The notes: generated by a model from the letters alone, not told the origin. A stretch of 64,000 nucleotides of DNA from Candidatus Poribacteria bacterium (GCA_965198235.1 OZ240248.1:1728001-1792000); one strand, 5' to 3'; shown: positions 13,384-57,778, numbered from the stretch's first letter. A program made the numbers and translations.

Positions 13384-13488
13384 GTGGGGGCCAAGGCGTG
13401 TAAGCCCAACCAGCGGGCGGGCTGGATATACGAGGGAAATCGTTCCTTCTACAGCTGTTCTGACCGAACCGCAAGGAAGATTAAAGAA
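13384..13488 (+). repeat. Intergenic element (CCGCAAGG end type, atypical hairpin) ending at a start codon
   Basis: ggatatacg...ctgaccgaaccgcaaggaagattaaagaa directly before ATG 13489; homologous to the 27173 and 33164 copies. Confidence 0.65.
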
Positions 13489-14273
13489 ATGATTTGGCAT
13501 ATTGTCACACGTGAACTTTTAGACCATCTCACGAGTCTACGCTTTGGCTTAACCACGTTCATCCTTGTAGCATTAATGGTAACCAACGCCGTTGTGCATC
13601 TTCAGACACATCCGGAACGGGTTCGGAAGTATTCTGAAAAGGTTAACGCGTCTCAGACCGAGTTGAAGTCCAGAACGCAGTTGTATGCGCTGTTGCAAAA
13701 GGGACTGCCTTCGACCAAATTAGGAGCGATTTCGTGAATAAATGGGAAACTTTAAGAGAACGCCGTCAATCCGCAGAAACCTTGCAGGAAGAAGTTGCAG
13801 GGGTAGACACTTCAGAATTAGAGATCCAGCGGGAGTTCGTCAACAAAGATATGGAGATTCGGGAGCGGCTTAGCCGCCAGCATCTCGCTGCACAAAGTGC
13901 TCAAGTGCTGCACGCAAGACGGATAACCCGGTGTTCACCCGCTGCGATTGTTCAATACGCGCTTGAATCCATGGCAGGCACAGGCTTTAATCGCCATTTG
14001 CAATTCTTAGAGTCCGCCAATCTTCATATCCGACAGTTCCGAAACTTCATTACTGAAATGGATCGGAGCGATCCGGAGAGTCTTCACATCATAGGGATCC
14101 GGGAAGGCATGTCGAAAACGCCCGTCCCACCAGAGGCTATCCCGATATTTGAGGATAAGTTATCTTTTCAGGATACGCTCGACCCCGCAATGGTAGATAT
14201 ATTATTGCTCATTTTACTGCTCGGTGTATCTCTTACAAGTGCATTCCTCGTTTTCCTGCGTTCAGAGATATAA
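13489..14273 (+). pseudogene. Second ABC-2 permease with large internal deletion and frameshift near 13705
   Basis: N-terminus MIWHIVTRELLDHLTSLRF and C-terminus ITRCSPA...FLVFLRSEI parallel the upstream permease; central TM core is missing. Confidence 0.78.
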
Positions 14274-14311
14274 GCCACCGTGAGAGGCACAACGAAAAAT
14301 CAAGTGATTTT

Positions 14312-14599
14312 ACCTCCCTCGCTCGAGAACAGGGTGCTTTAGCAGTAGGCGTTGTGACACGTCCATTCAACTTTGAAGGTCGGCGTCGCGCTGAACAAGC
14401 GAAACGTGGGCTGCAGGAACTTCAAGAAAATGTTGATTCTGTCGTTGTTGTGCAAAATCAACGATTGCTCGATTCGATAGAGGCGAAACAGAAACTACCG
14501 ATGACAATACGTGAGGCGTTCCATCTAAGCGATGAAATGCTGCTCCGCGGCGTTGAAAGCAGCATCTCAGAATTCCATTCCAGTACCCTGCGAAATTAA
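14312..14599 (+). pseudogene. ftsZ: FtsZ GTPase-domain fragment (paralogous)
   Basis: TSLAREQGALAVGVVTRPFNFEGRRRAEQAKRGLQELQENVDSVVVVQNQRLL...AFHLSDEMLLRGV; lacks GGGTGTG and stops before the T7 loop. Confidence 0.85.
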
Positions 14600-14682
14600 C
14601 ATCGGTAGTGCAGCTTTGATGCTGCAAGTTAGATGTTAGTTTGAATATATAATTAGCGTGGAGGTTAACCCTTTAAAAACGC

Positions 14683-14723
14683 TTTGATGGGGATTAAGAA
14701 TTTTATTCTTAATCCCCATCAAA
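14683..14723. repeat. Perfect 19-bp inverted repeat with 3-nt loop
   Basis: tttgatggggattaagaat-ttt-attcttaatccccatcaaa. Confidence 0.85.
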
Positions 14724-14771
14724 TTGTGAAGCCAATTCCTAAAGATGTTCTGAATCGGAGGAAGTTAATTG

Positions 14772-18788: not shown

Positions 18789-18935
18789 GACAGCAATAAT
18801 TCAGGTGATTATAGTAAAACCTGAGAGTCTGTAGGCAATTGTTCAGTGAACGAGGGAAACATCTAAGCAAAACACCCTTATCTCCGCTGGCGACGGTTGT
18901 ATCCTCGCCTATCCCCAATATTCAAGGAGTTGTAT

Positions 18936-20135
18936 ATGAAGTTTCGTGATGCTATCACCGCGGGCGTAAAGCCCCTCGCGCAAAATAGACTCCGTGCCGG
19001 ATTGTCCATTCTCGGCATCTTCATCGGGATTGCGGGTGTGCTGTGCATGATCGCTATCGGCGATGGCGGGAAACTTATCATCGCTCAAAACCTTGAAATG
19101 ATGGGTGGTGCCAATCAAATCGCATTCTGGACACGGACTTCTATTTGGAAGGGCCGACGGCTCGTCCGACGCACTACAGAACGATATACCCTTAAGGACG
19201 CTTCTGCAGTTGAGGCAGAATGCCCCGATGTGCTGTATGTCTTGCCTAAAGTAGAAGACTTCAACACCTTTGTTAGCAGCCGAAACGGGAATCAAGCGAA
19301 AGCGCGTTTAGAAGGTATCACAACGGACTACGCTCCCGGCATGGGTTGGGCAGTTCACGCCGGCAGATTCCTCTCCGACAACGATATCGAAGATGCAAAG
19401 CAGGTCTGTGTTCTGGGTGCTAACACCGCCAGTGAACTTTTCGGAGAGGTGTCGCCCATCGGACAAGAGGTGAAGCTTCGGTATCATTGGCGGCAATCGC
19501 AGATCAGGTTACGGGTTATCGGGGTGATGGCAACAAAAGGCATGAGCCTCAGCGACACGTATTCTTTGGATGATGCTATTTCTGTGCCATTGACAACCTA
19601 TCAACAACGGGTGAAAGGTTTTCGTTACGTTGACTACTTGCTCGTCTTTTTTAACAAAGGCGCGGCAGAGGTCAACAGTATTATTGATTCCGTTAAGAAC
19701 ACTCTGCGTAAAAGACACCGAGGGAAAGATGAATTTATCGGCGTTTGGAGAGCGAAACTGACGGCTCACCGACTTTACCACATTCAAAAAGTAATAAAAA
19801 TCACCTTGGGCAGTCATTGCGGGTTTCTCACTATTCGTCAGTGGTGTCGGTATCATGAATATCTGTCTCGTTTCTGTCGGTGAAAAAACGCGTGAGATAG
19901 GTTTACGAAAATCGGTGGGGGCGAAACGGATTGACATCTTCTATCAGTTCTTGACGGAATCAATCTGTCTCTGTTTCTGTGGTGGGGTGCTCGGCATCGC
20001 CGGTGGTTGGGGTGCGGCGCACGGGATGGCATGGCTTGCGGTGCGGATTGTGCCAATTGTGGAAACGTGGCCCGTCGTCCTCTCCTGCGGGCGGCGCGAT
20101 TTTCACCTGTCGACGCACTCCACACCGAGAATTAA
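18936..20135 (+). pseudogene. MacB/FtsX-family permease with +1 frameshift (about 19815) and deletion of the last TM helix (about 20085)
   Basis: Paralog of 8561; after WPVVLS the sequence jumps to RAARFSPVDALHTEN* in another frame. Confidence 0.8.
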
Positions 20136-20150
20136 CATTGGCAAGCCGAT

Positions 20151-20196
20151 TCTGGAGGGTTCGGGAGATTATATCGTCGAAAGTCCGTTGAAGTGA
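20151..20196 (+). pseudogene. DUF5694 extreme C-terminal remnant
   Basis: LEGSGDYIVESPLK matches the end of all three DUF5694 genes at protein and DNA level. Confidence 0.75.
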
Positions 20197-21787: not shown

Positions 21788-21853
21788 ATATAATGTTGTT
21801 TGATAAGAGGCTACCGTCTGATAAACGTGTTCCATTTTTTTGAAGGTGCAGCG

Positions 21854-22153
21854 ATGTTAATATTTAAGGAACGGCTGAAACATCTGAAAAATGATAATAT
21901 AGGGATGTTCGACCTCGCTTCGATCGGGATAACGCTTGCGCTCGCGATTTGTATCGGCTATTTCGGTGGCAAGTGGCTCGGTGGAAAATTAGGCAACGCA
22001 GCCGTTGGATCCTACATCGGTTTCGGAATAGGAGTTGCCGCTGGATTCATGGAGATGTTTCGCTCGATAGCACGCTGGAACCGCCAACTCGAACGTCTGG
22101 AAAAACAGCGTCGTGCCGCCTCAGAAAACGCGCAGGATACTGAAGAAGGATAA
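21854..22153 (+). CDS. atpZ: AtpZ/AtpI-family small membrane protein
   Basis: Two TM helices with Gly pattern (IGYFGGKWLG, GFGIGVAAGF); first gene of the atp operon. Confidence 0.75.
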   Translation: MLIFKERLKHLKNDNIGMFDLASIGITLALAICIGYFGGKWLGGKLGNAAVGSYIGFGIGVAAGFMEMFRSIARWNRQLERLEKQRRAASENAQDTEEG

Positions 22154-22229
22154 AATCTGAAAGCAATCGAGATCCGAAAATTTCGGTGATCGTGATTCGT
22201 CGAAATTTGACGAAGGAGCAGTTACTTAG

Positions 22230-22637
22230 ATGGGTCCCGTTTTGGAAATTGGCGACCGATTTATCCGTCATGTCTATGTCTTGACAATCTGTCTCACCGT
22301 AGTCATTTCGGCAGTGTTGTTAGGATTCAAACGCCCCGCGCTCCCAAGTTTTCTGATCGGCAGTGCTATCAGTTTGAGTCTATTCTGGTCCATCGAATTT
22401 GTGGTTCGGCGGCTTGTTCGGCCCGGAAAAACGAAGTCCACAAAGTACTTATTGGGTTTCATCGCAATTGGTAAATACACGGTGCTCGGTGGACTCCTGT
22501 ATCTCCTGTTTAAAATGGAGTGGATGAATATCTACGCGTTCGCTGGTGGGATTGCTTTAGTGCAAGGTGCTATCATTATCAAAGCGATCGGTTTGATGGT
22601 GACTATCCTTTCAAATAAGGACCCGAATCAGTCTTGA
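22230..22637 (+). CDS. atpI: ATP synthase subunit I
   Basis: Four TM helices; located before atpB. Confidence 0.75.
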   Translation: MGPVLEIGDRFIRHVYVLTICLTVVISAVLLGFKRPALPSFLIGSAISLSLFWSIEFVVRRLVRPGKTKSTKYLLGFIAIGKYTVLGGLLYLLFKMEWMNIYAFAGGIALVQGAIIIKAIGLMVTILSNKDPNQS

Positions 22638-22642
22638 GGCGA

Positions 22643-22850
22643 TTTTCTAACTATGGGAATATAGGTGCTGCTCCAAATGTAAAGCATTCTCACTGCGAAG
22701 CAAAATTATGCCATTTAAGGTATAATTTCATTTCGCAGCGGTCTTCATCGAATTCCAACCAGAAATCCTGGGTGCTCAAAGGTTTCTGACTTCACCCAGA
22801 CACCATCGTGAAACGAAGTGGAACGATGATCAGATTTAATAGTTTAAAAT
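22643..22850. repeat. Back-to-back pair of GNA-hairpin intergenic elements
   Basis: Minus-strand expanded-loop copy at 22643-22745 (homologous to 27318-27407); plus-strand catcgt-GAAACGAAGTGGA-acgatg at 22804-22828. Confidence 0.8.
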
Positions 22851-22860
22851 ACAACAAAAC

Positions 22861-23724
22861 ATGAAAAAAATACCATTTATCTGCTTGGTTGTCGGATTCA
22901 GTTTGGCAGCGGTGGCCGGGAGTTTCGCAGCAGAGGATGCCTCCTCAACGGAAACCCACTCCGATGACCATGGGCACCGCACGTGGCTCTACTCAATTTC
23001 ACGGCTACTACCCGATGACATCATTCCAGAACCCAGTCGGTGGCATCAACCCGACCTGATTCCAAACACATATTTTGCGGTTCTCGTCTTAGTGCTGTTT
23101 TTCATCTTCGTAACTCGGAAGTTGAAGCGGCTTCCGGAAGGAAAAGGACAAACCCTTTTAGAGTTGTTTGTCGGCGGCATAATTGATTTCTTCGGTGGAA
23201 TTTTAGGCGACCACGGCAGAAAGTATGTCCCATTCGTTGGCTCCTACTTCATCTTTATCCTTTCCCTGAACTATCTCGGCCTCATCCCAGGTTTTCAAGC
23301 GCCAACAGCAGATTTGAATACAACGCTCGCGCTCGGCATAACTGCTGTGTTAGGGGTTCAAATTATCGCTATCAAAGAGAATGGGATAGTCGGTTATCTC
23401 AAGCATCTCATCGGTGACCCGCCGTTATTGGGCGTTTTGATGTTTCCACTTGAGATAATTGCACAGTTATCTCGCGCGGGTTCTCTCGCTGTCCGTCTTT
23501 TCGGCAACATTTTTGGTGAAGAATCAGTGATTGTTGAGCTCACGAAACTGGGGCTCCTCGTCCTAATTGCTGGGGCTGTTCCAATCCTTCCGGTTCAAGT
23601 GCCGATGCTGTTCTTTGGATTGTTCGGTGGTTTTCTGCAAGCGTTCGTTTTCACCATCTTAACATCTATCTATATCGTGCTTTTCATAGAACACGATGAA
23701 GAAGCGCATGAAGCGCATCATTAA
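22861..23724 (+). CDS. atpB: ATP synthase Fo subunit a
   Basis: PTADLNTT, SLAVRLFGNIFGEE, LQAFVFTILTSIYI. Confidence 0.96.
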   Translation: MKKIPFICLVVGFSLAAVAGSFAAEDASSTETHSDDHGHRTWLYSISRLLPDDIIPEPSRWHQPDLIPNTYFAVLVLVLFFIFVTRKLKRLPEGKGQTLLELFVGGIIDFFGGILGDHGRKYVPFVGSYFIFILSLNYLGLIPGFQAPTADLNTTLALGITAVLGVQIIAIKENGIVGYLKHLIGDPPLLGVLMFPLEIIAQLSRAGSLAVRLFGNIFGEESVIVELTKLGLLVLIAGAVPILPVQVPMLFFGLFGGFLQAFVFTILTSIYIVLFIEHDEEAHEAHH

Positions 23725-23775
23725 TTCTGTGGGACAAGTAAAAGCTTGCCCCTATCCGTCCAAGGAGGACATTTT

Positions 23776-24081
23776 ATGATTTATTTAGCAGTGTTGGCGC
23801 TTGGTGTAACTTTAGGGTTACCGATCGCTGTTATTTTTGCCTCAACAGCGCAAGGCAGGGCAACAAGTACTGCTCTTGAAGGAATTGCACGTCAACCTGA
23901 GTCATCTGCGAGAATTCAAACCGCGATGATTATCGGTTTGGCACTCATCGAGTCGCTCGTTATCTATTCGCTGTTGATGTTCTTTGTCTTGCAGAGCAAA
24001 CTCCCCGAAGGCGAAATGCTGAGAGAGATGATTGATGCAGACGCGAAACGAGTTGCGACAGATGTCAGAGACGGAAATTAA
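23776..24081 (+). CDS. atpE: ATP synthase Fo subunit c
   Basis: IARQPE loop, IGLALIESLVIY; GGAGG RBS. Confidence 0.96.
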   Translation: MIYLAVLALGVTLGLPIAVIFASTAQGRATSTALEGIARQPESSARIQTAMIIGLALIESLVIYSLLMFFVLQSKLPEGEMLREMIDADAKRVATDVRDGN

Positions 24082-24208: not shown

Positions 24209-24850
24209 ATGCGAAACATCAAACATAGGCTTTCGCTTCGCAAGAGACGCTTGCAAGCGGCACGCTACGGGACCCTATATGGATGCTGCTTCATTTTGAT
24301 GAGCATGTGCCTCAGCAGCGCGTTCGCCGCTGAAGCTCCTGCCGGTGAAGGTGGACTTTTGGCACTGCTCGGTATTGATCCGAAGACGATTATCATTCAA
24401 GTCATCGGTTTCCTTGTTGTGCTCGCGGTACTTTGGAAGTTTGTCTTCGGTAAGGTGGGTGGCCTCTTAGAGGAACGGCGCACCGAAATCACCACGCAGT
24501 CGGAGCAATTGAGGGCTGACCGCGAAGAATTGGACCGGCTCACCGCAGAGACGCGCCAACGTTTAGCCGATATTGAGACCGAAGCACAAGCCAAAATTCA
24601 AGCGGCGATTGAACAGGGGAATACTGAACGTCAGCAAATTCTCGTACAGGCACGGCAAGAGGCGGACGATGAAGTCGCAAGAGCCAGAGCAGAGATTCAG
24701 CGTGAAAAAGACGAGGCTATCTCAGAACTGCGAGGCGTTGTCGCTGAACTCGCCATTGATGCCGCCAGCAAAATCATAAGTGCGGAACTCAACGCAGAGA
24801 GGCATCAGCATATCATTGATGCATCTATTAGCAGGTTACCAATTTCTTAA
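24209..24850 (+). CDS. atpF: ATP synthase Fo subunit b (start uncertain; may be 24299-24305)
   Basis: QVIGFLVVLAVLWKFVF TM followed by coiled coil; ELAIDAASKII. Confidence 0.92.
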   Translation: MRNIKHRLSLRKRRLQAARYGTLYGCCFILMSMCLSSAFAAEAPAGEGGLLALLGIDPKTIIIQVIGFLVVLAVLWKFVFGKVGGLLEERRTEITTQSEQLRADREELDRLTAETRQRLADIETEAQAKIQAAIEQGNTERQQILVQARQEADDEVARARAEIQREKDEAISELRGVVAELAIDAASKIISAELNAERHQHIIDASISRLPIS

Positions 24851-24997
24851 CTATTAACACCTGAGTGCCATTCCATTCCATTCCATGGCGGTTTTCGGTG
24901 AATGCCAACCCGCTCCAGGTGCGCAAAGGTTTCTGACTTCACCAAACCCCCTCGTGAAACGAAGTGGAACGAGGCCCAGAGGCATATAATTAGAAAT
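24843..24997. repeat. Back-to-back pair of GNA-hairpin elements filling the atpF-atpH spacer
   Basis: Minus copy gccat-GGAATGGAATGGA-atggc (24867-24889) ends in the atpF stop; plus copy cctcgt-GAAACGAAGTGGA-acgagg (24950-24974) ends TTAGAAAT before ATG 24998. Confidence 0.85.
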
Positions 24998-25537
24998 ATG
25001 AGAGACATTCGGGTTGCAAAACCTTATGCACGCGCCCTATACGATGCAGCGGTGGAACAGAACGCCTTGGCACCTATTGTCGCAGATGTAGATAGGCTGC
25101 GAGAGTTGGTTGAACAGTCTGAGGAATTCACGCAATTAATCCACAGCCCTATTCTGTCTCCACAATTTAAGAGCGAGACGTTTCAGCAGCTTTTTACCGA
25201 TACGATGCAACCTCTGACCGTTAATTTTTTCAAACTCCTCGCGTTGAAGCAGCGTGAACGTTATCTCGTCGCGATCATGGATGTCTTTTCGGCAATGGTT
25301 GACGAGGCTGCTGGTAGGCTCGTCGCAAAAGTGACGACGGCTGTACCTATAACAGCCGAACAAGAGGAACGACTCGCCGAGCAATTAAGCACGTACTCAG
25401 GGAAACAGGTGCGGCTGGAGACCATAACTGACCCACAAATTCAGGGTGGATTCATCGTGCAGTTAGACGACACCGTTTTTGATGCAAGCGTTACAACACA
25501 GCTTCAACGCTTGAAGCAACAGCTTGCAAGCGGATAA
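24998..25537 (+). CDS. atpH: ATP synthase F1 subunit delta
   Basis: VAKPYARALY, DPQIQGGFIVQLDDTVFDAS. Confidence 0.95.
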   Translation: MRDIRVAKPYARALYDAAVEQNALAPIVADVDRLRELVEQSEEFTQLIHSPILSPQFKSETFQQLFTDTMQPLTVNFFKLLALKQRERYLVAIMDVFSAMVDEAAGRLVAKVTTAVPITAEQEERLAEQLSTYSGKQVRLETITDPQIQGGFIVQLDDTVFDASVTTQLQRLKQQLASG

Positions 25538-25657: not shown

Positions 25658-27172
25658 ATGGCAAGAGAAGTCCGACCGGACGAAATATCAAATATCCTTA
25701 AACAACAACTGCAACAGTTTGAACAGAACGTGGATGTCTATGACTCCGGCACGGTGCTGGAGGTAGGCGATGGCATCGCGCGGGTGCATGGGCTTGCCAA
25801 CGCTATGGCAAGTGAAATGATCGAATTTCCTAACGATGTCTACGGCATCGCTTTCAACCTCGAAGAAGACAATGTTGGTTGCGTTCTGTTCGGAGAAGAC
25901 CAACTCATACACGAAGGCGATACCGCCAAACGCACTGGAAGACTGCCGGAAGTACCCGTGGGTGAGGCACTTCTCGGACGGATTGTCGATGCACTCGGTC
26001 AACCTATTGATGGCTTGGGCGACATTGAAACTGAACATCGACTTCCGGTCGAACAGAAAGGTCTCGGCATTGTTCAACGTCAACCGGTTAGCGAGCCCCT
26101 TTACACAGGCTTAAAAGCTATTGACAGCTTAACACCGATCGGGAGAGGTCAGCGTGAACTGATTATTGGTGACCGTCGAACCGGCAAGACCGCCATTGCC
26201 TTGGATACTATCTTGAGTCAGAAAGATACAGATGTCTACTGTATCTATGTCGCTATTGGTCAAAAAGGTTCCACTTTGGCGCAAGTTGCAGCTACGCTTC
26301 GTGAGCATAACGCGATGGAGTATACGACTATCGTCTCATCACCTGCGAGTGCGCCGTCACCACTTCAGTACCTCGCACCCTATTCCGGTACTGCAATGGG
26401 TGAATACTTCAGGGACAACGGCAAACACGCCCTCATTATCTATGATGACCTAACGAAACACGCGTGGGCGTACCGTCAGATGTCACTGCTTTCACGAAGG
26501 CCTCCCGGTAGGGAAGCCTATCCGGGTGATGTCTTCTACCTGCACTCACGTCTGTTAGAACGCGCCGCAAAATTGAGCGATGAATTGGGCGGAGGTTCTC
26601 TCACTGCCTTGCCGATTATTGAGATCTTTGAAGGCGATTTGACGACCTATATTCCTACGAACGTTATCTCCATCACCGATGGACAGATATACCTCACGAC
26701 GGACCTGTTTAACCAAGGTGTGAGACCTGCGATCGATGTCGGGTTATCCGTTTCCCGTGTAGGTGGTGATGCCCAAGTGAAAGCGATGGATACACGAGAG
26801 GTCGCAGGGACCCTTAAACTCGATCTCGCGAGTTTTCGGGAAGTTGCTGCCTTTGCGCAATTTGGATCGGATTTGGACGCATCAACGCAATCCTTGCTTC
26901 TACGCGGCACACGGCTCGTTGAATTGCTGAAACAACCCGAATATCAACCGATGCCTGTCGAACGCGAAGTCGCCTCTATCTTCTGCGGCACCAACGGCTA
27001 TCTGGATGATGTCGAGGAAACAGAAGTGGCTCGGTTTGAATCCGAATTTCTGCAATATCTTGACAGGAATCACACAGAACTCCTCACAGAAATCGCAGAA
27101 ACAGGTTTGCTGGGTGATGAACTCCTTGAGACCTTACACGCTGCCGTGAAGACGTTCAAGGAAAATTTTTAA
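25658..27172 (+). CDS. atpA: ATP synthase F1 subunit alpha
   Basis: [39 protein letters not shown]. Confidence 0.98.
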
Positions 27173-27407
27173 CTGTTTTTTGATGATACCTTGCGGTTCA
27201 GTCAGGTGGGTGGCATAAATAGCGTTCATTTCCGTATATCCGCTCTCCACTTCGTTACGAGTTGCGCGCTAAAAAAACGTCAAAACGCCCAAACCCAGTT
27301 GAGACTTCACCAGAAACCCGCTCGTGATGAAATTAGGTTTCCTTAAATGGCATAATTTGTCTTAGCTTTACATTTGGAGAGCGGCCCAGGGGCCCATAGT
27401 TAAAAAA
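27173..27407. repeat. Back-to-back pair of GNA-hairpin elements filling the atpA-atpG spacer
   Basis: Minus copy with loop GTAACGAAGTGGA (27246-27258) and GAACCGCAAGG end; plus expanded-loop copy ending TTAAAAAA before ATG 27408. Confidence 0.85.
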
Positions 27408-28286
27408 ATGGCAACTTTACGAGAAATTCGCAGGCGTATCGCTAGCATTCAAAACATCGAGCAAGTCACTGATGCAATGCGCGTCGTGGCTGCTGCGCGG
27501 CTCCGCCGTGCCCAAGAAAATATTAATGCGACTCGTCCTTACGCTGATAAACTCAACACCATCTTAGGACACTTAATCTCGCAGATGGATACTGAAAATG
27601 AAGCACTGACACACCCGCTGCTTGAAACGCGTGAGATAAAGCATGCCTGCATCATTTCTGTCTCCTCAGACCGAGGGTTGTGTGGTAGTTTCAACAGTAA
27701 CGTTATTCGGACAACCACACAACGTATCCAACATTATCAAGAGAGTGGTGTCGATGTAACGCTCATCTGTATCGGTAGACGATCGCAAGAGCATTTTGCA
27801 CGGCGCGGTTACGACATCACCGATGCATACATCAATATTTTCCGTCAGCTCGAGTTCCAAACGGCTGTTGATGTTGTTCACGAGTTTGAACACCTTTATA
27901 CAGATAAAAAGATTGATAAAGTCGAGGTTATCTACAACAACTTCAAGTCTGCTATTCTCCAGACCGTGCTTGTTGAGCAGCTTCTCCCATTAGAGCCTGA
28001 AATACCGGAAGGTGATGAACTTTTTCTGGATTATATCTATGAACCGGGGCAGGTGGAACTCTTTGAAATGCTACTCGGCAAACATCTGAACATGCAAATG
28101 TGGAAAGTACTGCTGGATTCCAACGCGGCGGAGCAAGCAGCCCGAATGGCAGCGATGGAGAATGCCACGCAGAAGGCAAAAGAACTTATTGATGAGCTCA
28201 TTCTTCAACGCAATAGAGCACGTCAAACGCAGATCACGACGGAAATTTCTGAGATCGTAAGTGGTGCGGCTGCACTGGAAGGTTAA
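27408..28286 (+). CDS. atpG: ATP synthase F1 subunit gamma
   Basis: SSDRGLCGSFN, ARMAAMENAT, RARQTQITTEISEIVSGA. Confidence 0.98.
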   Translation: MATLREIRRRIASIQNIEQVTDAMRVVAAARLRRAQENINATRPYADKLNTILGHLISQMDTENEALTHPLLETREIKHACIISVSSDRGLCGSFNSNVIRTTTQRIQHYQESGVDVTLICIGRRSQEHFARRGYDITDAYINIFRQLEFQTAVDVVHEFEHLYTDKKIDKVEVIYNNFKSAILQTVLVEQLLPLEPEIPEGDELFLDYIYEPGQVELFEMLLGKHLNMQMWKVLLDSNAAEQAARMAAMENATQKAKELIDELILQRNRARQTQITTEISEIVSGAAALEG

Positions 28287-28932: not shown

Positions 28933-30341
<1,409 letters not shown>

Positions 30342-33163: not shown

Positions 33164-33678
33164 TTTTCTAATTTTCCTTTTTTTAATTTTCCTTGCGGTT
33201 CGTTTAGGGGGTTTGGTGGTTTTCACGTTCCTTTCCGTAGACCCGCTTTCCACTTCGTTCCAAGCTACGCGCTATTTTAACTGAAAGGAGCGCGAACCGA
33301 TTTCTAATTTTCCTTGCGGTTCGTTTAGATGGTTTGGTGATTTTCACGTTTCCTTTCCGTAGACCCGCTTTCCACTTCGTTCCAAGCTACGCGCTATTTT
33401 AAGTGAAAGGAGCGCGAACCGATTTCTAATTTTCCTTGCGGTTCGTTTAGATGGTTTGGTGATTTTCACGTTTCCTTTCCGTAGACCCGCTTTCCACTTC
33501 GTTCCAAGCTACGCGCTATTTTAAGTGAAAGGAGCGCGAACCGATTTCTAATTTTCCTTGCGGTTCGTTTAGATGGTTTGGTGATTTTCACGTTTCCTTT
33601 CCGTAGACCCGCTTTCCACTTCGTTCCAAGCTACGCGCTATTTTAAGTGAAAGGAGCGCGAACCGAGCGCGCTCCTAC
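33164..33678 (-). repeat. Four tandem 121-122-bp copies of the GNA-hairpin element, closed by a REP palindrome
   Basis: ccttgcgg at 33191, 33312, 33434 and 33556; copies 2-4 identical, copy 1 differs at several positions; aggagcgcg-aaccgag-cgcgctcctac at the right end. Confidence 0.92.
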
Positions 33679-35627: not shown

Positions 35628-35706
35628 TTTTCAGCCTCCATGGTGTGTGAGCGGGTCGAAAAGACCTCGCATTGTTAAAAATCCTTTCATCATCCAGAGA
35701 CGGTTG

Positions 35707-35769
35707 GACTTAACCAAAAACCATCACGAAACGTAGTGGAGTGATGCCCAGGAGCACATAATTAAGAAA
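35707..35769 (+). repeat. GNA-hairpin element supplying the stop codon of the convergent gene
   Basis: gacttaacc, catcac-GAAACGTAGTGGA-gtgatg, cccaggagcacataaTTAAGAAA. Confidence 0.85.
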
Positions 35770-36604
35770 AGAGTTCCGTAATCAACTGTGCATTCTGACC
35801 GATCTGATCGCCGAATTGTTGATACATACCGAGCAAAAGTGGATCAATCGGTTTGGTGTTTTCTAACGCGAATTTCACCTCTTCCCGAATTTGTTCTGGG
35901 CTTCCGATGGTCCTGCCTGCTGCGAGCACTTTGAAAATGAGGCACGGTTTATCTGTCCGTTGGATCGCTTTACACATTTCATCGCGATCCTCCCGCGCAT
36001 AGACTTCGCCCAGAGCCGCGTAGCCGAATTTCTCTCTGAACTTATCGGCACCACCGTGAAGGTTATAAAGTCCAGTCATATAGTAGTCTATATCCCAATC
36101 CTCATCTTCAGCGATATGCAGGAGTTTCGGATCATGAACGGACAGGCCAACGAGAGCCCCGGTATCACGAACCCGTTTGAGGATGTCCTGTAGGTGATCG
36201 AGCCTGTTTTCGCGTAAACACCTGTGACCAACACCACCACCGTGTGGTGCCATACCGAACGGGTCGTGCTTTGCTGCTTCAAAGACAGCGTCCGGTTCGT
36301 CATACCAAAGTCCGCCTGGACTGAGGCAGAACCAGTTCAATGTACCACCTTCATCTCGGTACCGCTGCAAGTCAGAGAGCGAGCGTTCCGTTAGGCTATT
36401 CTGCCAGCCATTAAGCCCAGCCTCCTCTGCCCGCTTGAGCGTTGCCACGACGCGTTCGGGTGTATGATATTCCTGCTGATGCTGTGAAAGAAGTTTGTTA
36501 AAGTGGGAATAGCCGTAAATCGGGTTATCCCCAATCACCAATTTACTGATCTGATGATTACAAAAAGAGACTTTTGGTAAGGTTGCCACTGGTTTATCCT
36601 CCAA
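35762..36604 (-). CDS. Aldo/keto-reductase-like TIM-barrel protein
   Basis: ISKLVIGDNPIYGYSH, GLSVHDP, FKVLAAGR. Confidence 0.7.
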   Translation of the reverse strand: MEDKPVATLPKVSFCNHQISKLVIGDNPIYGYSHFNKLLSQHQQEYHTPERVVATLKRAEEAGLNGWQNSLTERSLSDLQRYRDEGGTLNWFCLSPGGLWYDEPDAVFEAAKHDPFGMAPHGGGVGHRCLRENRLDHLQDILKRVRDTGALVGLSVHDPKLLHIAEDEDWDIDYYMTGLYNLHGGADKFREKFGYAALGEVYAREDRDEMCKAIQRTDKPCLIFKVLAAGRTIGSPEQIREEVKFALENTKPIDPLLLGMYQQFGDQIGQNAQLITELFS

Positions 36605-48245: not shown

Positions 48246-48301
48246 CCAACGTGATGGCGTGCTTCCCTTGAGGTTACGGAACCTCACTAACAACCTACCC
48301 C

Positions 48302-48363
48302 TACTTAACCGAAAATCTGCCTGAAACGAAGTGGAAGGCAGCCCAGGAGCCATAAATTAAAAA
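48302..48363 (+). repeat. GNA-hairpin element ending at a start codon
   Basis: ctgcct-GAAACGAAGTGGA-aggcag, cccaggagccataaaTTAAAAA before ATG 48364. Confidence 0.85.
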
Positions 48364-49080
48364 ATGTTTGGCGAAATTAGAAATGGACAGGGTGAACGCC
48401 TTGATTACGCCTTTCATGAAGGCGAAGGCGACAGAATTGCGGTGATTGGACACGGAGTGACTGGCAACAAGGACAGACCTGCACTCATCGCTTTGGCAGA
48501 GGGACTCGCTGCCGCTGGCATTTCTGTGCTGCGCTTCTCCTTCTCCGGCAACGGTGGATCGGATGGGGCATTTACAGATTCCACTATCACAAAAGAGATA
48601 GCAGACCTCGGGAACGTCATTGATGCGCTTGATGGATATAACGTCTGTTATGTCGGGCATAGTATGGGTGGTGCAGTTGGTGTCCTGCGTGCCTCTGCCG
48701 ATGAACGTATCCAACTACTGGTTTCACTTGCGGGAATGGTCCACACGAAAGCGTTTGCACAACGTGAATTCGGCGATGTCACACCCGATGAGGGCTTTAT
48801 GTGGGATGAACCTGACTGTCCACTCTCACGAGCCTATATGGATGAGATGGCGGCAATAGACAGTGTCGCAAAAAGCGCAAGTAAATTTGCCGTTCCGTGG
48901 CTTTTGGTTCACGGCACAGAGGACGATATCGTTCCCATTGAGGATAGCCACGACATCCTACAGTACGCAAACGAAGAGACAGAACTTCTCGAACTGCCGG
49001 GCGTGGACCACGTCTTTTCTGGTGACTCCACCGCAATTATGGTTGAAAAAGTCGTCACGTGGATTCGTCAAAATCTATAA
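48364..49080 (+). CDS. Alpha/beta hydrolase
   Basis: HG, GHSMGG, HGTEDDIV, DH catalytic triad. Confidence 0.92.
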   Translation: MFGEIRNGQGERLDYAFHEGEGDRIAVIGHGVTGNKDRPALIALAEGLAAAGISVLRFSFSGNGGSDGAFTDSTITKEIADLGNVIDALDGYNVCYVGHSMGGAVGVLRASADERIQLLVSLAGMVHTKAFAQREFGDVTPDEGFMWDEPDCPLSRAYMDEMAAIDSVAKSASKFAVPWLLVHGTEDDIVPIEDSHDILQYANEETELLELPGVDHVFSGDSTAIMVEKVVTWIRQNL

Positions 49081-50344: not shown

Positions 50345-50575
50345 ATGGCTTCTAATGCTATTGCCACGATTACCCGAATGGTGGAGACACTACCTGAAGC
50401 GTTGCAGAATCAGATCATGGAGCATCTACGCGAGTATATTGCGGAGTTAGAAGATGAACTTCGTTGGGAGGTTTCCTTCAACAGGACGCAAGAGCAACTC
50501 ATCGCGACTGCTCGTCGTGCCAAAAAGGAAATCGCCGAAGGAAAAGCCGAACCAATGGATTTGGATCGGTTATGA
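50345..50575 (+). CDS. Putative antitoxin
   Basis: Small ORF coupled by ATGA to the downstream toxin. Confidence 0.7.
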   Translation: MASNAIATITRMVETLPEALQNQIMEHLREYIAELEDELRWEVSFNRTQEQLIATARRAKKEIAEGKAEPMDLDRL

Positions 50576-50832
50576 AATCGGCAACATTGCCTTCATTTTG
50601 GGCAGCTTATCGAACACTTGATGAGACGCTTAGAAATCAAGCCAGAAAGGCGTATCGATTGTGGATTTCTAATCCGTTTCATGGTTCTTTGCGTTTCAAG
50701 TGTATCAATAATGAGGAAGGTATTTGGTCCGTGAGAATCACTCGGGGTTATCGTGCGGTCGGCATCTTAGAAGAAGATACAGTCACATGGTTTTGGATAG
50801 GGCATCACGACGATTACGAACGTTTTTTTTAG
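50572..50832 (+). CDS. RelE/ParE-like toxin
   Basis: NPFHGSLRFK...WSVRITRGYRAVG...WFWIGHHDDY. Confidence 0.85.
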   Translation: MKSATLPSFWAAYRTLDETLRNQARKAYRLWISNPFHGSLRFKCINNEEGIWSVRITRGYRAVGILEEDTVTWFWIGHHDDYERFF

Positions 50833-51706: not shown

Positions 51707-51940
51707 ATTATCTGATTTCCTTGGGCGGTGCTTTGTAAAAACGCAAAAGAACAGACCATAACCATGGAAAAAGCAGATTACAAATCCGATTCTACAGATG
51801 GGATTAAAACTGTTCCTGACTCAAGGCGGGACTTTCTTGCCAGGTTGGGCAAAGGGGCAAGGTTACCTCGGAAATGTTATTCACAGGGTGCCTGTCTCGG
51901 TAGTCGCCTAAACAGAAATGCGTGAAAATTGGTTCTCCAT

Positions 51941-52047
51941 CTTTTCTGGTTCGCGAGACCTAAGCCCGTAATGTAATGGAGGGCGACTCTAAAAAAAAAT
52001 CTTCAATGCCCAAACCACATTACTTAACCGCAAGGAAAATTAAAAAT
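51941..52047 (+). repeat. GNA-hairpin element ending at a start codon
   Basis: gccc-GTAATGTAATGGA-gggc, ttaaccgcaaggaaaaTTAAAAAT before ATG 52048; near-identical to 55636-55744. Confidence 0.85.
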
Positions 52048-52530
52048 ATGAAACTTGGTGTCATGTCCGATAGTCACGACAATATCCCAAACGTCAAACG
52101 CGCTGTCGCACTCTTCAATGAAATCGGCGTAGATCTCGTTGTCCATGCAGGCGATTTCATCGCGCCGTTTGCTATTGACCCGTTAGCCGATCTAAACTGC
52201 CGCGTTGTCGGTGTTTTTGGAAACAATGACGGCGAACGCATTGTCGTTGCACAACGGTTTGAGGCAATCGGTGAGGTACATCCCAACCTCGCAAGTGTGT
52301 CGCTTGGCGATAGAAACATTGCCGTGATGCACTACCCCGAACTCGCCATCCCGATCGCCAAAAGTGGCGATTACGACATCGTCGTCTACGGACACACCCA
52401 CCAGATAGACATCCAGAAGGGGAAATCGCTCCTGCTCAATCCCGGTGAAACCGGCGGTTGGACGACTGGGAAGGCAACGGTTGCCGTTGTCGATCTCGAG
52501 ACGCTTGAGGCAACAATTCATGAATTGTAG
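52048..52530 (+). CDS. YfcE-family metallophosphoesterase
   Basis: SDSHD, HAGD, GNND, GHTH, LNPG. Confidence 0.93.
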   Translation: MKLGVMSDSHDNIPNVKRAVALFNEIGVDLVVHAGDFIAPFAIDPLADLNCRVVGVFGNNDGERIVVAQRFEAIGEVHPNLASVSLGDRNIAVMHYPELAIPIAKSGDYDIVVYGHTHQIDIQKGKSLLLNPGETGGWTTGKATVAVVDLETLEATIHEL

Positions 52531-52876: not shown

Positions 52877-52902
52877 AATCCGTAGGCATATTGATTTGCA
52901 CT

Positions 52903-52960
52903 TGTAGGAGGGAACTCCGATTCCTGACTCTGCTTGTAGGAGGGAACTCCGATTCCCGAC
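52903..52960. repeat. Tandem GTAGGAGGGAACTCCGATTCC REP units
   Basis: Two direct copies; same family as 37809. Confidence 0.75.
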
Positions 52961-52992
52961 CTCTGACTGAAAACCGATGGCTAACAGCCAAT

Positions 52993-54270: not shown

Positions 54271-54273
54271 GCT

Positions 54274-55635
54274 TTAGTCCATTAATCGCGCATTATATTG
54301 CCGCTCGGTATGCTGATATCTACCGAACAGGTCGGGTTGAAAAGGAGTAGGTGTGTAGATGTAGACAGCGTCGCTATACGGATCATAGAGGATTACCTCT
54401 TCACGTGTGTCGCCGCAGACATCCGCAGGAAAGCAGTGGTACCATCCCATTTTGCCGCCAGTGGGGGGCGGCAGTTCAGGGAACGTCACCACCTTGTCTC
54501 CTGCACTATCGAAAAGTGCAGCTGGGCTATAAATCAATTCACAAGCTTCGTCCCCGTGCCAGCGGATAACTTCCAAGCCTGTATTGTTCGGTGTTTCATC
54601 GACGTTAAATCGACTGTTAATCTGCCCGTTGCTGTCTACTACCATCAGGTCCGTGTGATGCCCGTTATAGCGGATAACCAAGGCGTTTTCAGACGCGTCT
54701 GGTAGTAATCTGCCACACCGAATCTCTTGTCCGTGCGGCACAACGTCAAAGCCGAGCGAGAGGATTGGATTACCCTCGGCATCAACCACCTGTCCACCGC
54801 CGGAGAGGATAGCCCGGTTCCTGCCGTTCCATTCGGAAACTAAAACCGAGTCCATGTTGTCGCCAAAAAAGTGATTCCAGAGGACCGTGCCGTCGGAAGC
54901 GAGTCCGAAATTGCCACCGTTGACTTCGTCGAGTCCGTCGCCATTAAAGTCGCCGACGGCTGGGATATATGCGGAGTGCTTTGGATAGCGAAACCACTCG
55001 TCGGTATACTGCCAGAGCAGTTCCAATTTATGGTTAAAAGCGAGCAGATTCACACCTACCTTCACGACAAAATCTTGGGGTTGTGCATTTCCGCAGAGGT
55101 TGGCAATCATCAATCGTTGATGGACGTAGTTGGAGATATGGAGTTCACCTTCAGCGGACGCATTACACTGGCGCAGCGCATCCGGCGCGAGGGTCCGTTT
55201 GACAGCACCCGTCGCACCGTCTAAAATCATTAGGCGAATTGCAGACAGATCCCATTTACTCACTTCTGGAGCATTCGCGTCTACCCAGAAGCAGATGACC
55301 TCTGCCTGTCCATCGGCATCTATATCGTGAATAGCGACGGGGCCGGGTCGGTCGGGTGAGAGGGTCGTTAAAGTGGTATCCTTCGCATCCGCATCTCTGA
55401 TTTCGAGATGTTTGTCACCGAGGGACCAGAGGGGTTCACCTTCCAACGTGAACGCACCGAGGAAACACGGATGAATACCGCCGAGCGATTTGTACACGAG
55501 AAAGTCGACTGTTCCGTCGCCGGTCAGATCGCCGATTCGGATGTCGCCACCCCACTCGTTTCCCGATGTTTCATTCAGGAATACGTCTGGAATTGCGATT
55601 CGTTTATAAAGATGTGCTGATTGTGGTGTGTCCAT
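54274..55635 (-). CDS. FG-GAP beta-propeller protein, rhamnogalacturonan-lyase (PL11)-like
   Basis: Repeated GDLTGDG, DIDADG, GDFNGDG and ADVCGDTREE Ca-binding motifs. Confidence 0.7.
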   Translation of the reverse strand: MDTPQSAHLYKRIAIPDVFLNETSGNEWGGDIRIGDLTGDGTVDFLVYKSLGGIHPCFLGAFTLEGEPLWSLGDKHLEIRDADAKDTTLTTLSPDRPGPVAIHDIDADGQAEVICFWVDANAPEVSKWDLSAIRLMILDGATGAVKRTLAPDALRQCNASAEGELHISNYVHQRLMIANLCGNAQPQDFVVKVGVNLLAFNHKLELLWQYTDEWFRYPKHSAYIPAVGDFNGDGLDEVNGGNFGLASDGTVLWNHFFGDNMDSVLVSEWNGRNRAILSGGGQVVDAEGNPILSLGFDVVPHGQEIRCGRLLPDASENALVIRYNGHHTDLMVVDSNGQINSRFNVDETPNNTGLEVIRWHGDEACELIYSPAALFDSAGDKVVTFPELPPPTGGKMGWYHCFPADVCGDTREEVILYDPYSDAVYIYTPTPFQPDLFGRYQHTERQYNARLMD

Positions 55636-55744
55636 CTTTTCTGATTCGCGAGACCTAAGCCCGTAATGTAATGGAGGGCGACTCTATAGAGAAAACCTTC
55701 AATGTCCCAGTTTACGCCACTTAACCGCAAGGAAAATTAAGAGA
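55636..55744 (+). repeat. GNA-hairpin element filling the whole intergenic space
   Basis: Begins immediately at the minus-strand ATG 55635; loop GTAATGTAATGGA at 55663-55675; end overlaps the stop at 55737-55739. Confidence 0.85.
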
Positions 55745-56501
55745 ATGCCTTGAAAATCCCGACGTAGAGGGCAAGCACCTTCTCTGGGTCAGAACCTGTA
55801 TAAGCACATTCATTGGATATATAGCCTGAGAAACCGATACGATCGAGCCATTGGAACATCTGTCGGTAAAGATCGAACGTCTCTGGCTCTTCCACCCGGT
55901 GCGTATGTACAGCAGTAATGTGTGTAGCTACACGCGAGAAGAGGGGATCAATGCTCCCAGCATCGCAACCGATGAATTGCGAATTGAAGACAAAACCGAC
56001 ATTCGGGAGATTCACGCCTTCGATGACTTCCATCGCCGAATCCGGATCTGTGAATGAGCCGTGCATCTCAATAGAAACGGTAATATCTTTTTCAGCGGCA
56101 TAGCTGCCCAGAGCCTTCAGTCCATCAGTGACGTAACCGACAATAGCATCGCGGTTCTCCTCGGTGTATCGGTCACCGAGCACTCGGACATGGTCACAGC
56201 CCATAAATTCCGCCATGTCAATCACACGCGTAACGCGTCGGACGGTTTCTTCACGGTCAGCGGCGTTTTCGGAGTGAAAATTTTGGCAACTCGTGAGTGA
56301 GGAGATAACAACGTCACTCGCATCGACCTGTGCCTTGAGTCCGTCCCAAGCCTCTCTCGGCGTATCCCATTCAAATCCGTGTTTCTGCTTGTAATCCATT
56401 AACAATTCGACACCATGATAACCGGTAGCGGCAGCGGTGTCAAGTATACGTCCGAGTTCCCACTCTTGGCAGGTTTGATAAGTATTCAATGACCATCTCA
56501 T
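55737..56501 (-). CDS. Sugar phosphate isomerase/epimerase
   Basis: GYHGVEL, IEMHG, HTH, SNEC. Confidence 0.85.
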   Translation of the reverse strand: MRWSLNTYQTCQEWELGRILDTAAATGYHGVELLMDYKQKHGFEWDTPREAWDGLKAQVDASDVVISSLTSCQNFHSENAADREETVRRVTRVIDMAEFMGCDHVRVLGDRYTEENRDAIVGYVTDGLKALGSYAAEKDITVSIEMHGSFTDPDSAMEVIEGVNLPNVGFVFNSQFIGCDAGSIDPLFSRVATHITAVHTHRVEEPETFDLYRQMFQWLDRIGFSGYISNECAYTGSDPEKVLALYVGIFKAFS

Positions 56502-56564
56502 ATTTTTAACTATGGCCTCCTGGGCATCGTTCCACTTCGTTTCACGATGGTTTTCGGTTCAGTC
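56502..56564 (-). repeat. GNA-hairpin element ending at a start codon
   Basis: Minus strand gactgaaccgaaaac-catcgt-GAAACGAAGTGGA-acgatg-cccaggaggccatagTTAAAAAT-ATG. Confidence 0.88.
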
Positions 56565-56616
56565 TGTCCCAACTGGGGAGATGAACGGCTTCAAGAATTT
56601 GATGAAGTATATCTTC

Positions 56617-57714
56617 CTACTCTTGTATTGGAATGGGAAACCAGAGTCCCCCAGTTTTCGTCGTTAACGCCCTATGCGTGGTATGATTAATGCCGATGAC
56701 ATCCACGGTAATGTTGTTCTGAAAGCACTGTGCTAACACTTCTGGTAGCGTGTAAGACCCTTTGCTCGCTTCATCGGTGACAAGAATGAACCGGCGGTTC
56801 ACCCCTTCGCGAAAGTTGACGCGGCGGATCGTTTTTATGATGGCATTGTGTGCCCGCTCATCGCCAGCAGCAGCGACAACATGTGAAGTTAACAGTCGTT
56901 TGTATTTCTCGCTATCCCGCGTCTGCGGATGGATAATCGTATCGCCTTCGAGATACCTGAAAATAACGATGCCGAGTGTGAAATCAACCCCTTTTTCCTC
57001 AAACACCGTTACCATCCGATTGAGTTGTCTGCCGACTGCACGGATATTATCTATCATGCTCCCACTAATGTCAAGCAGAAAAACGAGGTCAACAGCGGTT
57101 TCGGTTTTGCTATCGGCGACGCTCTCCGCGATACCTTCTAATGCCTCCCCCATCCGGGCATCTCTGTCGATTGGGGGTGCAGGGCTGTTATTACCTGTCG
57201 CTGTGTTCATCGCAGCCTCTCCTTGGATGGTTTTGGGCTTGGGCGCGATTGTGGGAGCCTGCGCATTTGCAGTCGCAATCGTTTTCCACGCAAGGGTTTC
57301 TGTGGTCTGCTCGCGCAGAGATGTCTCAGCCATCGGTAACCGAGCATCTGTCCTCAGCACGGGAATAGATGCACGGGACGCAGTCGGCGGAGCTGAATGC
57401 ATCAGTTTTGCAATGTTTGGGTTAACAGCGGGCGAGGTTTTAGAACGCGCAGGTGTTGACCGCTGCGTAGCCGGCATAGAACGTTTGCGAGTACTACTCA
57501 CATGAAAACGTTGGAGAGATGTCACTGAGATGGCTTCCGAAGTAAGCGGTTCCGAAGGTTGCATCGGTCGATACCACTGGATATAACCCAAACCTATAAT
57601 GCCTGTCGCAATGGTATGTAGAACCAATGAAACCAGAAACGCACGCCGAGTTTTCCTACGCCTGTGGTGTCTGAAGTGCTGGAGTTTATCTGAATAGGTG
57701 TCGAGTAGCAGCAT
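56617..57714 (-). CDS. Membrane-anchored vWA domain protein
   Basis: FLVSLVLH TM anchor, Pro/Thr-rich linker, MIDAS DISGSM, ILVTDE. Confidence 0.85.
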   Translation of the reverse strand: MLLLDTYSDKLQHFRHHRRRKTRRAFLVSLVLHTIATGIIGLGYIQWYRPMQPSEPLTSEAISVTSLQRFHVSSTRKRSMPATQRSTPARSKTSPAVNPNIAKLMHSAPPTASRASIPVLRTDARLPMAETSLREQTTETLAWKTIATANAQAPTIAPKPKTIQGEAAMNTATGNNSPAPPIDRDARMGEALEGIAESVADSKTETAVDLVFLLDISGSMIDNIRAVGRQLNRMVTVFEEKGVDFTLGIVIFRYLEGDTIIHPQTRDSEKYKRLLTSHVVAAAGDERAHNAIIKTIRRVNFREGVNRRFILVTDEASKGSYTLPEVLAQCFQNNITVDVIGINHTTHRALTTKTGGLWFPIPIQE

Positions 57715-57778
57715 TTTTTTAATGTATTGCTTCTGGGCTGCCTTCCATTTCATTTCAGGCAGGTTTTTTGTTAATTCG
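57715..57778 (-). repeat. GNA-hairpin element ending at a start codon
   Basis: Minus strand ctgcct-GAAATGAAATGGA-aggcag-cccagaagcaatacaTTAAAAAA-ATG. Confidence 0.85.

Follow-up and report, generated by a model that had tools for sequence, protein, structure and literature searches.

The window analysed here is a single stretch of 64,000 nt from the chromosome of a Candidatus Poribacteria bacterium (GCA_965198235.1 OZ240248.1:1728001-1792000; G+C ~48%), and our subject is a dispersed intergenic element within it, built around a small hairpin whose 13-nt loop follows the pattern GNAAYGNARTGGA. The window contains 14 matches to this pattern where dinucleotide shuffles predict 0.17 (0 of 100 reach 14), and each is the loop of a hairpin with a 4-6 bp stem whose arms, the complementary flanks of the loop, vary between copies. 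The stem covaries across copies from other genomes of the phylum, and the tail of the element is phased with start codons in one orientation and with stop codons in the other. We give about an even chance to the reading that this is an old, Poribacteria-specific repeat family that has become fixed as a leader, translation-start and gene-end module.

Many ordinary genes of this chromosome segment are preceded by GGAGG ribosome-binding sites at 6-9 nt spacing, and searches of the 64 kb for tRNA genes and Rfam families found none. An earlier note, made from the sequence alone, had listed 14 loop matches, all with correct coordinates and strands, and had described freely varying closing stems, in agreement with the complementary flanks that we find at each loop. 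The two copies to which it assigned an expanded loop are present as well (~22640-22765(-) and 27300-27410(+)), as is its different hairpin at 13384, a CCAGC/GCTGG stem at 13384-13488(+) followed by the shared AACCGCAAGG...ATTAAAG tail; the common flanks that it had noticed, ACT(T/G)(A/C)ACC and CC(GCA/C)AGG...TTAAAAA, are real. In total, the 64 kb hold 16 hairpins, 14 with exact loops and two of the expanded-loop kind, plus a single unit whose hairpin is a different one.

The hairpin is shared by two architectures, types A and B. The shorter of them, type A, is covered by a 71-nt model and has its hairpin between AACC and CCCAGGAG. Read 5' to 3', it consists of a head, (G)AATTAACC-GAAAA, a 6-bp helix of free sequence (P1), the loop, the return strand P1', CCCAGGAG and an A-rich tail, CATAATTAAAAA; about 7 nt after CCCAGGAG comes TTAAAAA, the tail consensus is ATAATTAAAAA, and at least 30 nt more of semi-conserved sequence extend upstream. 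The hairpin measures 25 nt and its loop, with nine invariant positions, reads G-N-A / A-Y-GNA-R-T / G-G-A: GNA faces GGA in a 3x3 purine internal loop, and a second helix of 2 bp (P2; AY/RT) is capped by a GNA triloop or bears a long conserved arm in its place.

Type B spans ~120 nt, with its hairpin ~45 nt 5' of AACCGCAAGG, and runs 5' to 3' from an often present G-TAG into a 4-bp stem, across the same loop and back along the return stem to CGG-RTNTACGGAAAGG, ~25 nt further sequence, and AACC-GCAA-GG-AAAATTAAAAA. The type A hairpin takes the position of the type B GCAA tetraloop, between CC and GG. By-eye reading of the flanks places GTAG, partly paired, at the hairpin foot in 9 of 14 type B copies; type A lacks a GTAG/CGTC tag and is flanked by AACC-GAAAA-CC and CCCAGGAG. 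The ends of type B resemble each other in reverse, and no target-site duplication could be separated from the A/T-rich tail. In a third form, which retains the GNA...GGA frame, P2 is lengthened by an almost unvarying arm of ~50 nt; the window has two such copies and other genomes have the form at three loci, and it occurs within type A as well as type B surroundings. A type B body with another hairpin occurs at 13384 in the window and at two of the loci compared below (L014 and L068).

An F-type ATP synthase operon at ~21800-30787 contains three head-to-head pairs of copies, after atpI, atpF and atpA (scores in bits are those of the covariance model R1, described below). In the first, an antisense expanded-loop copy (22640..22765, -) lies just after the atpI stop at 22635-22637 and faces a sense type A copy (22786..22855, +; loop GAAACGAAGTGGA; 52.9 bits) with a degenerate CCCAG box, ATCAGATT, followed by the atpB ATG at 22861. 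In the second, a type A copy antisense to the operon (24838..24908, -; loop GGAATGGAATGGA; 63.6 bits) holds the atpF stop TAA, 24848-24850, within its tail, and its sense type A partner (24932..25002, +; 73 bits) leads to the atpH ATG at 24998. The third joins an antisense type B copy (27170..27290, -; loop GTAACGAAGTGGA at 27246), whose tail includes the atpA stop TAA at 27170-27172, to a sense type A copy with the expanded P2 arm, a conserved insert of ~50 nt (27300..27410, +), and the atpG ATG at 27408. The conserved N-terminus of atpG (MATLREI...) starts right behind the tail, which marks this ATG as the native start. The operon truly ends at a classical intrinsic terminator after atpC (30812-30841), a 9-bp GC-rich stem followed by a T-run. 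Within the operon, a DnaJ-C28-like ORF (open reading frame; 28313-28801) lies between atpG and atpD, and atpD (28933-30341) looks frameshifted, with its N-terminus in frame at 28933-29124 and the rest at 29040-30341, through an assembly error or a real break.

Elsewhere in the window, type A copies lead in the sense orientation to an alpha/beta-hydrolase gene (48299..48369, +; ATG 48364; 79.7 bits), to the gene 55737-56501(-), whose ATG comes directly after the copy (56497..56567, -; 81.2 bits), and to a VWA-domain gene (57710..57780, -; loop GAAATGAAATGGA; ATG 57714-57712; 77.9 bits); an antisense copy (35704..35774, +; 83.2 bits) has the stop of the gene 35762-36604(-) within its tail. Type B is represented by a sense copy before a YfcE-family phosphodiesterase gene (51930..52050, +; loop GTAATGTAATGGA; ATG 52048) and by an antisense copy that bridges two (-) genes (55628..55745, +), with the stop of 55737-56501(-) in its tail (TTA 55737-55739) and the ATG of 54274-55635(-) adjoining its head. 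Four tandem 122-nt type B units occupy 33180..33666(-), each containing a hairpin (GGAACGAAGTGGA), a block (GGTCTACGGAAA) and a tail (AACCGCAAGGAAAATTA), upstream of a PhyH-domain gene (ATG 33163); the copies at 33249-33627 form one tandem array of period 122, with 4.0 copies and 98% matches. The type B-like unit with the other hairpin, CCAGC-GGGCGG-GCTGG (13384..13488, +), has a ATATACGAGGGAAA block and a AACCGCAAGGAAGATTAAAGAA tail and is followed by an ATG at 13489.

The element family is restricted to Poribacteria. A scan of 185,579 species genomes with the loop plus CCCAGRRG, a pattern of ~34 bits for which some chance matches are expected, returned at least 103 stretches; among the matches listed, 78 belong to Candidatus Poribacteria, four to metagenome-assembled genomes (MAGs) labelled "uncultured bacterium" and 21 to other taxa, and all six contiguous stem pairs are present in 70 of the 82 Poribacteria or unlabelled-MAG matches versus 1 of the 21 others, which serve as a built-in negative control. 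Model R1, built from 84 copies (set A1), gives the window's seven type A copies 53-83 bits and its type B hairpins no more than 18-22 bits; across loci L001-L100 it gives 108 matches at E<0.001, all in Poribacteria or unlabelled-MAG loci, ~28 of which the pattern had missed. Counting the window, at least 34 genomes have type A copies. Collinearity with the window is limited to one locus, L069, whose overlap (62950-63998; 73% protein-level identity) lies at the right end of the window, beyond the last element; this identity and the presence of the family are in keeping with a poribacterial origin of the window. The family is also not one already curated in Rfam, a comparison that the earlier note had proposed: Rfam 15 gives no match in the whole window at gathering score and none at any element at E up to 10 (single-element slices of 96 and 161 nt give chance-level matches only), and its sole match in 20 Poribacteria loci (80 kb) is a tRNA. 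Our search of the literature on Poribacteria repeats, stem-loops, RNA motifs and non-coding RNA found no description of the element.

The covariance-model scan and covariation test suggested at the outset reveal strong covariation across the Poribacteria copies, with figures that the relatedness of the copies inflates: in set A1, pre-filtered to at least five of six stem pairs and freed of one non-Poribacteria row and a few poorly paired rows, 98.5% of cells are paired against 71.7% in shuffles. An unfiltered check, subject to the same inflation, took all nhmmer matches with <80% mutual identity (91 copies) and aligned the 70 best of them: 98.7% of 559 cells are paired versus 72.9% in shuffles (0 of 500 as high), both-side changes are seen in 152 cells versus 52.7 expected, and slid controls pair at 17.7-58.9%. 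Five of the six P1 pairs occur as three or four standard pair types, and the inner loop pair covaries as had been proposed (CG 44, UA 23 and UG 3 in 70 copies). RNAalifold, run on 70 non-redundant copies, predicts only the 6-bp P1 and the 2-bp AY/RT P2, with no additional upstream helices on 99-nt stretches, and the RNA minimum-energy fold of the sense strand gives P1 and P2 too. Covariation and RNAalifold together support the earlier suggestion of a dispersed intergenic family selected for a single-strand fold. Stem sequences fall into 48 types in 110 copies, and the six commonest (CTGCCC 13, CATCGT 12, CTGCGC 9, CTGCCT 9, CACCGC 8, CCGCTC 6) account for 57 of them. A pseudoknot between GAAGT in the loop and an upstream ACTTC was considered and dropped for want of covariation, ACTTAACC being found with the same loops.

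The two orientations of the element differ in their position relative to genes. Of 111 near-full copies oriented by strand, 62 are sense: a long ORF follows, and its start codon is 14-18 nt downstream of CCCAGGAG. Another 34 are reversed, their tail containing, or ending just short of, the stop codon of an ORF on the opposite strand; seven are ambiguous, fitting both descriptions, and eight fit neither. Re-classing after the removal of rows with misplaced loops leaves 106 copies, with 59 sense, 31 antisense and 16 ambiguous. The start codon of the sense copies is ATG in 57 and lies 15-16 nt past CCCAGGAG in 46; the stop of the antisense copies is TAA in 27, often as the reverse of the TTA of the tail. 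Exact CCCAGGAG is found in 45 of 59 sense versus 8 of 31 antisense copies (Fisher p = 5e-6) with a search pattern that admitted all four RR variants, and AGGAG, enriched in the sense orientation alone, thereby stands out as a translation signal. The phasing of the tail with start and stop codons, absent from the earlier note, points to a role in gene expression.

Close copies lie head to head, in 16 pairs against no tail-to-tail and one tandem arrangement, so placed that one copy closes the upstream gene and its partner opens the downstream gene. Likeness between the partners of these 16 pairs does not exceed that of shuffled partners for any part, be it head, stems, loop or tail (3' stem, 0.448 vs 0.547). 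Kissing of partner loops or a long duplex between partners, as in translational coupling, an RNase III site or a REPIN, was rejected on this lack of likeness beyond shuffled pairs. At one locus (L032), the element tail (263-333(+)) adjoins the 3' end of an opposite-strand tRNA gene (328-400(-)), so reversed copies follow RNA genes too and not coding genes alone. Pfam assignments for 222 ORFs of 62 loci have no common functional theme and include many core operon junctions: rpoB/rpoC (L044 and L056), rplR/rpsE (L005, with a pair of copies), nuoL/nuoM (L037), sdhA/sdhB (L043 and L068), ribBA/ribH (L009), sufB/sufD (L074) and ilvN/ilvC (L067). Sites inside essential operons cannot tolerate a block of expression, and we count them in favour of a module that serves gene starts and ends.

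Orthologous pairs of loci were aligned and divided into element, codon positions and other intergenic DNA, giving 13 comparisons. The element is 86-100% identical in eight of them, with third codon positions at 59-82% in seven and 94% in the eighth (L012/L066). Element and third-position identities are 100% and 76.5% for L044/L056, 98.5% and 58.9% for L017/L026, 97.1% and 65.6% for L011/L021, 97.0% and 81.1% for L034/L064, and 96.9% and 81.8% for L022/L045; for two reversed copies they are 92.3% and 71.9% (L014/L059) and 85.9% and 75.3% (L043/L068). In four comparisons (L021/L052, L011/L052, L002/L012 and L040/L069) the element is 72-75% identical, and one pair (L049/L080) is too close to discriminate between element and codon positions. 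These alignments indicate purifying selection on the element at orthologous sites. Mean identity between type A copies is 0.598 within a genome and 0.609 between genomes, and the best match of a type A copy averages 0.674 in the same genome versus 0.832 in another, where it is usually the orthologue; a recent burst finds no support, as there are no near-identical type A copies in the same genome (maximum 0.83). Judged by these alignments, type A appears to be old and mostly fixed and type B more fluid. Where the L049 and L080 genomes are otherwise 98% identical, a 232-bp segment differs (L049 2913-3144 vs L080 2914-2927), replacing a classical AAGGAG and TTG start by a tail-like AAGGTAAATTAAAAT and an ATG start.

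Several features of the window stand apart from the element. A MacB/FtsX-like permease gene is apparently split into adjacent ORFs (18897-19883 and 19855-20196), as is a DUF3179 protein gene (38874-39221 and 39243-39962), and an ORF with a ParE-like toxin domain lies at 50464-50832. Three DUF5694 paralogues (94-1296, 1353-2273 and 7182-8144) surround a pair of ABC exporter genes within positions 1-8144. Genes with a PhyH domain (phytanoyl-CoA dioxygenase) are strikingly many, at 11171, 32339, 33699 and 40831 in the window and at many Poribacteria loci, and several of them are led by the element.

If the family is a fixed leader, translation-start and gene-end module, a sense copy would be the 5' untranslated region or intercistronic leader of the gene that follows. 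Its hairpin would fold locally, with its 3' end ~24 nt upstream of the AUG, and the Shine-Dalgarno-like AGGAG and the A/U-rich tail would be kept single-stranded as a region for ribosome loading. The translation start would be insulated in this manner from upstream sequence, and the hairpin would probably shield a processed 5' end. An antisense copy would end the upstream gene, its reversed tail (TTTTTAA) supplying or adjoining the TAA stop before the complementary hairpin; internal copies need not terminate transcription because the real intrinsic terminator of the operon sits after atpC. We infer that the folded strand is RNA, that the hairpin helps initiation or stability, and that the conserved loop is read by a protein.

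A number of observations weigh against this account. The spacing from AGGAG to AUG, 14-15 nt, is beyond the 6-9 nt of ordinary GGAGG sites in the same genome. Of 61 sense copies 57 have the exact loop, as do 28 of the 32 antisense ones (Fisher p = 0.44), and a role in sense RNA only fails to explain this equal conservation in both orientations together with selection on antisense copies. A wobble bias is absent in 110 copies (G-T 14 vs A-C 23; sense 3 vs 6, antisense 6 vs 10), and folding energies are no better than those of shuffles (RNA z ~-1.4 to +1.1), by standard models in which purine-purine loops go unscored. Most z-scores are ~0 for RNA and DNA on both strands, and the one reverse-strand DNA fold at -3.7 is other than the proposed structure; wobble counts and energies pick neither RNA nor DNA, nor a particular strand, as the folded molecule. 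Between L021 and L052, whose genes are orthologous, the whole element has been swapped (73.9% identity; stem, loop variant, head and tail differ), which is replacement and not stepwise compensation. Type B units have been gained or lost, varying in number and order between L014 and L059 and between L043 and L068, and the 98%-identical four-unit tandem array of the window is a further sign of turnover.

Equal loop conservation in both orientations would be expected if DNA, not a given transcript, is what is read, and it speaks for an alternative that we regard as unlikely: a single-stranded DNA (ssDNA) element similar to repetitive extragenic palindromes (REPs), in which the hairpin would be what a RAYT/IS200-type HUH enzyme acts on in copying or maintaining the family, and the position at gene boundaries would reflect target choice and tolerance instead of a function. 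GNA triloops and GGA/GNA sheared zippers are stable in DNA, which suits such a substrate, as do the lack of a G-U bias, the discrete stem subfamilies (48 types in 110 copies), the 16 head-to-head dimers against no tail-to-tail ones, the GTAG read by eye at the hairpin foot in 9 of 14 type B copies, the gain and loss of units between relatives, and an IS605 OrfB in a Poribacteria locus. That gene (L075 2-1012(-); TnpB-type) is separated from an element pair by ~1 kb that includes an RraA-like gene, and it is the only transposon-related ORF of the 222. The earlier note had considered a non-autonomous mobile element, with HUH enzymes as readers of ssDNA hairpins, and had advised a search for copies beside such a gene; no Y1 or HUH gene is found among the 222 flanking ORFs of 62 loci, similarity within a genome is not in excess, with no type A copies above 0.83, and orthologous sites appear to be under purifying selection, so this part of the proposal finds no support in the loci examined. 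Transposability alone does not predict element identity above that of third codon positions, nor does type A carry a GTAG or CGTC tag; start-codon phasing and the sense-only AGGAG enrichment require a translational role, and head-to-head partners are no more alike than shuffled ones, unlike REPIN doublets. Rather unlikely, too, is a cistron "punctuation" in which a dedicated RNA-binding protein on the purine-loop hairpin sets where processed 5' and 3' ends fall and leaves the start region free, as pentatricopeptide repeat (PPR) proteins do at barrier sites in chloroplast operons. Nine invariant loop positions, far more than a plain hairpin requires, would be accounted for by such a protein, and the copies between cistrons of large operons, the fixed distance from hairpin to AUG and the tolerance of a long P2 arm with the GNA/GGA frame kept, as in motifs of protein or tertiary contact, fit it as well; antisense copies, however, give a complementary pyrimidine loop in the mRNA that the same protein would hardly bind, and partner loops match no more than by chance. 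We hold with similar doubt to a bolder form of this idea, a phylum-wide Poribacteria punctuation in which the purine-zipper hairpin and a dedicated factor would mark cistron boundaries at perhaps a tenth of genes or more, essential operons included, define mRNA ends and license translation through a distant Shine-Dalgarno sequence and an A-rich tail, having spread as a repeat before becoming fixed. Were it true, the equal conservation of reversed copies would mean that the factor reads DNA too or that both strands are expressed, and the system would be to bacteria what intercistronic barrier sites are to organelles.

The tail also looks weakly like a -10 box (CATAAT/CATAGT, ~7 nt, ATG) at a fitting distance from the ATG, and several extracytoplasmic function (ECF) sigma factors are encoded; transcripts beginning at the ATG of a leaderless mRNA are nevertheless very improbable, since stem covariation is useless to a duplex promoter, there is no conserved -35 box, and the ACTTAACC distance differs between types A and B. 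A consensus scan found a single site inside an element, in the expanded arm at 27327-27356, in a region with fewer promoter-like sites than shuffles; moreover, no promoter is needed within the rpoB/rpoC or ribosomal-protein operon, and promoters in antisense copies would be directed at the end of the upstream gene. Still less can be said for an intrinsic terminator or attenuator formed by the reversed hairpin and GGTTTTCGGTT. Antisense copies do lie just past stop codons, and one just past a tRNA gene, with a short T-rich run behind the reverse hairpin, yet a 6-bp stem with a 13-nt loop is weak, the copies sit within operons that require read-through, and a terminator scan of 22000-36000 calls none of them while calling 30812-30832 after atpC. 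Integron attC-like recombination sites around gene cassettes are disfavoured to the point of being negligible. Inverted copies do enclose segments of one to three genes with stop and start codons at their outer ends, and attC sites act as ssDNA hairpins (PMC5737381, in excerpt); the enclosed genes, however, belong to core operons (atp, rpo, ribosomal proteins) and keep a conserved order, no integrase occurs among the 222 ORFs, copies are mostly single, and R'/R'' core sites are not conserved, the tail being RTTAAAAA.

The element is unusual in how exactly it is coupled to start and stop codons, in its spread through the phylum and in being conserved within essential operons. If it is a leader, translation-start and gene-end module, a candidate phylum of uncultured sponge symbionts would rely on a single structured module, used over and over, for the starts and ends of many genes, including those of RNA polymerase, ribosomal-protein, respiratory and ATP synthase operons, an unusual solution for translation start and operon organisation. 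It would also offer a practical marker of Poribacteria DNA and an aid to the calling of start codons in their genomes. We see in it a candidate for a compact natural "insulated ribosome-binding site", and in its hairpin, with a GNA triloop on a 2-bp helix within a GNA/GGA purine loop, a clean model for selection on one motif as RNA versus DNA.

Among known systems, the closest likeness is to REP, BIME and REPIN sequences, which are likewise short, high-copy extragenic hairpins, plausibly transcribed, with variable stems and a kept fold. The traits of REPs as GTAG/CGTC-tagged extragenic palindromes associated with RAYT genes are taken from excerpts of PMC3733652, PMC2817692 and PMC8266576, and the first of these excerpts adds that REPs commonly lie in close opposite orientation (PMC3733652). 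Our element shares the imperfect palindrome with an internal loop and the frequent close inverted pairs, and its 25-nt, high-copy hairpin falls within the 20-40 bp of a palindromic unit; likeness in the tag is limited to type B, in which GTAG is often at the hairpin foot. It differs in that type A has no tag, in that the conserved part is the loop and not the stem foot, and in its position, 62 of 111 copies being directly upstream of a start codon, where they carry the ribosome-binding region, and 34 after a stop, whereas REPs lie mainly downstream of genes, between unidirectional or convergent ones. No RAYT gene is found among the 222 ORFs of 62 loci, and in contrast to REPINs the doublet partners (16 pairs) do not evolve together. 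A separate, classical REP-like palindrome, GTAGGAGSGAWCTCC (GTAGGAG(G/C)GA(A/T)CTCC), is distinct from the GNA-loop element and lies in the window at 37808-37875 and 52901-52965 (tandem pairs of periods 35 and 32) and at 33664-33678(-), and in four Poribacteria loci (L004 3115-3129, L048 3570-3584, L072 3312-3326 and L079 3171-3185), so the organism holds ordinary REP-like repeats as well.

Pneumococcal BOX elements and other modular small repeats are treated in PMC3049150. BOX elements are similar in their modular sub-units, in a tandem number that varies between relatives, and in being intergenic and likely transcribed. Their sequence and fold differ from those of our element. BOX elements are not known to be phased with start or stop codons or to be phylum-wide. 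[quoted passage not shown] Terminal inverted repeats, target-site duplications and insertion differences from strain to strain characterise such MITEs; in our element, by contrast, no target duplication is definable and type A copies look old and fixed. With attC sites it shares a single-strand hairpin that keeps its structure with free sequence and a place between the stop of one gene and the start of the next, but its loop is conserved, its neighbours are core operons without integrase or cassette genes, and its tail lacks the RYYYAAC / GTTRRRY core. The supplement of Weinberg et al. 2017 reportedly lists a "Poribacteria-1" motif, a possible counterpart of the element. The main text of that study, as excerpted, does not mention Poribacteria (PMC5737381), and the same excerpt holds that some RNA motifs found by comparative genomics may act as ssDNA (PMC5737381). 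Our element has in common with those motifs a lineage-restricted distribution and a covarying intergenic hairpin.

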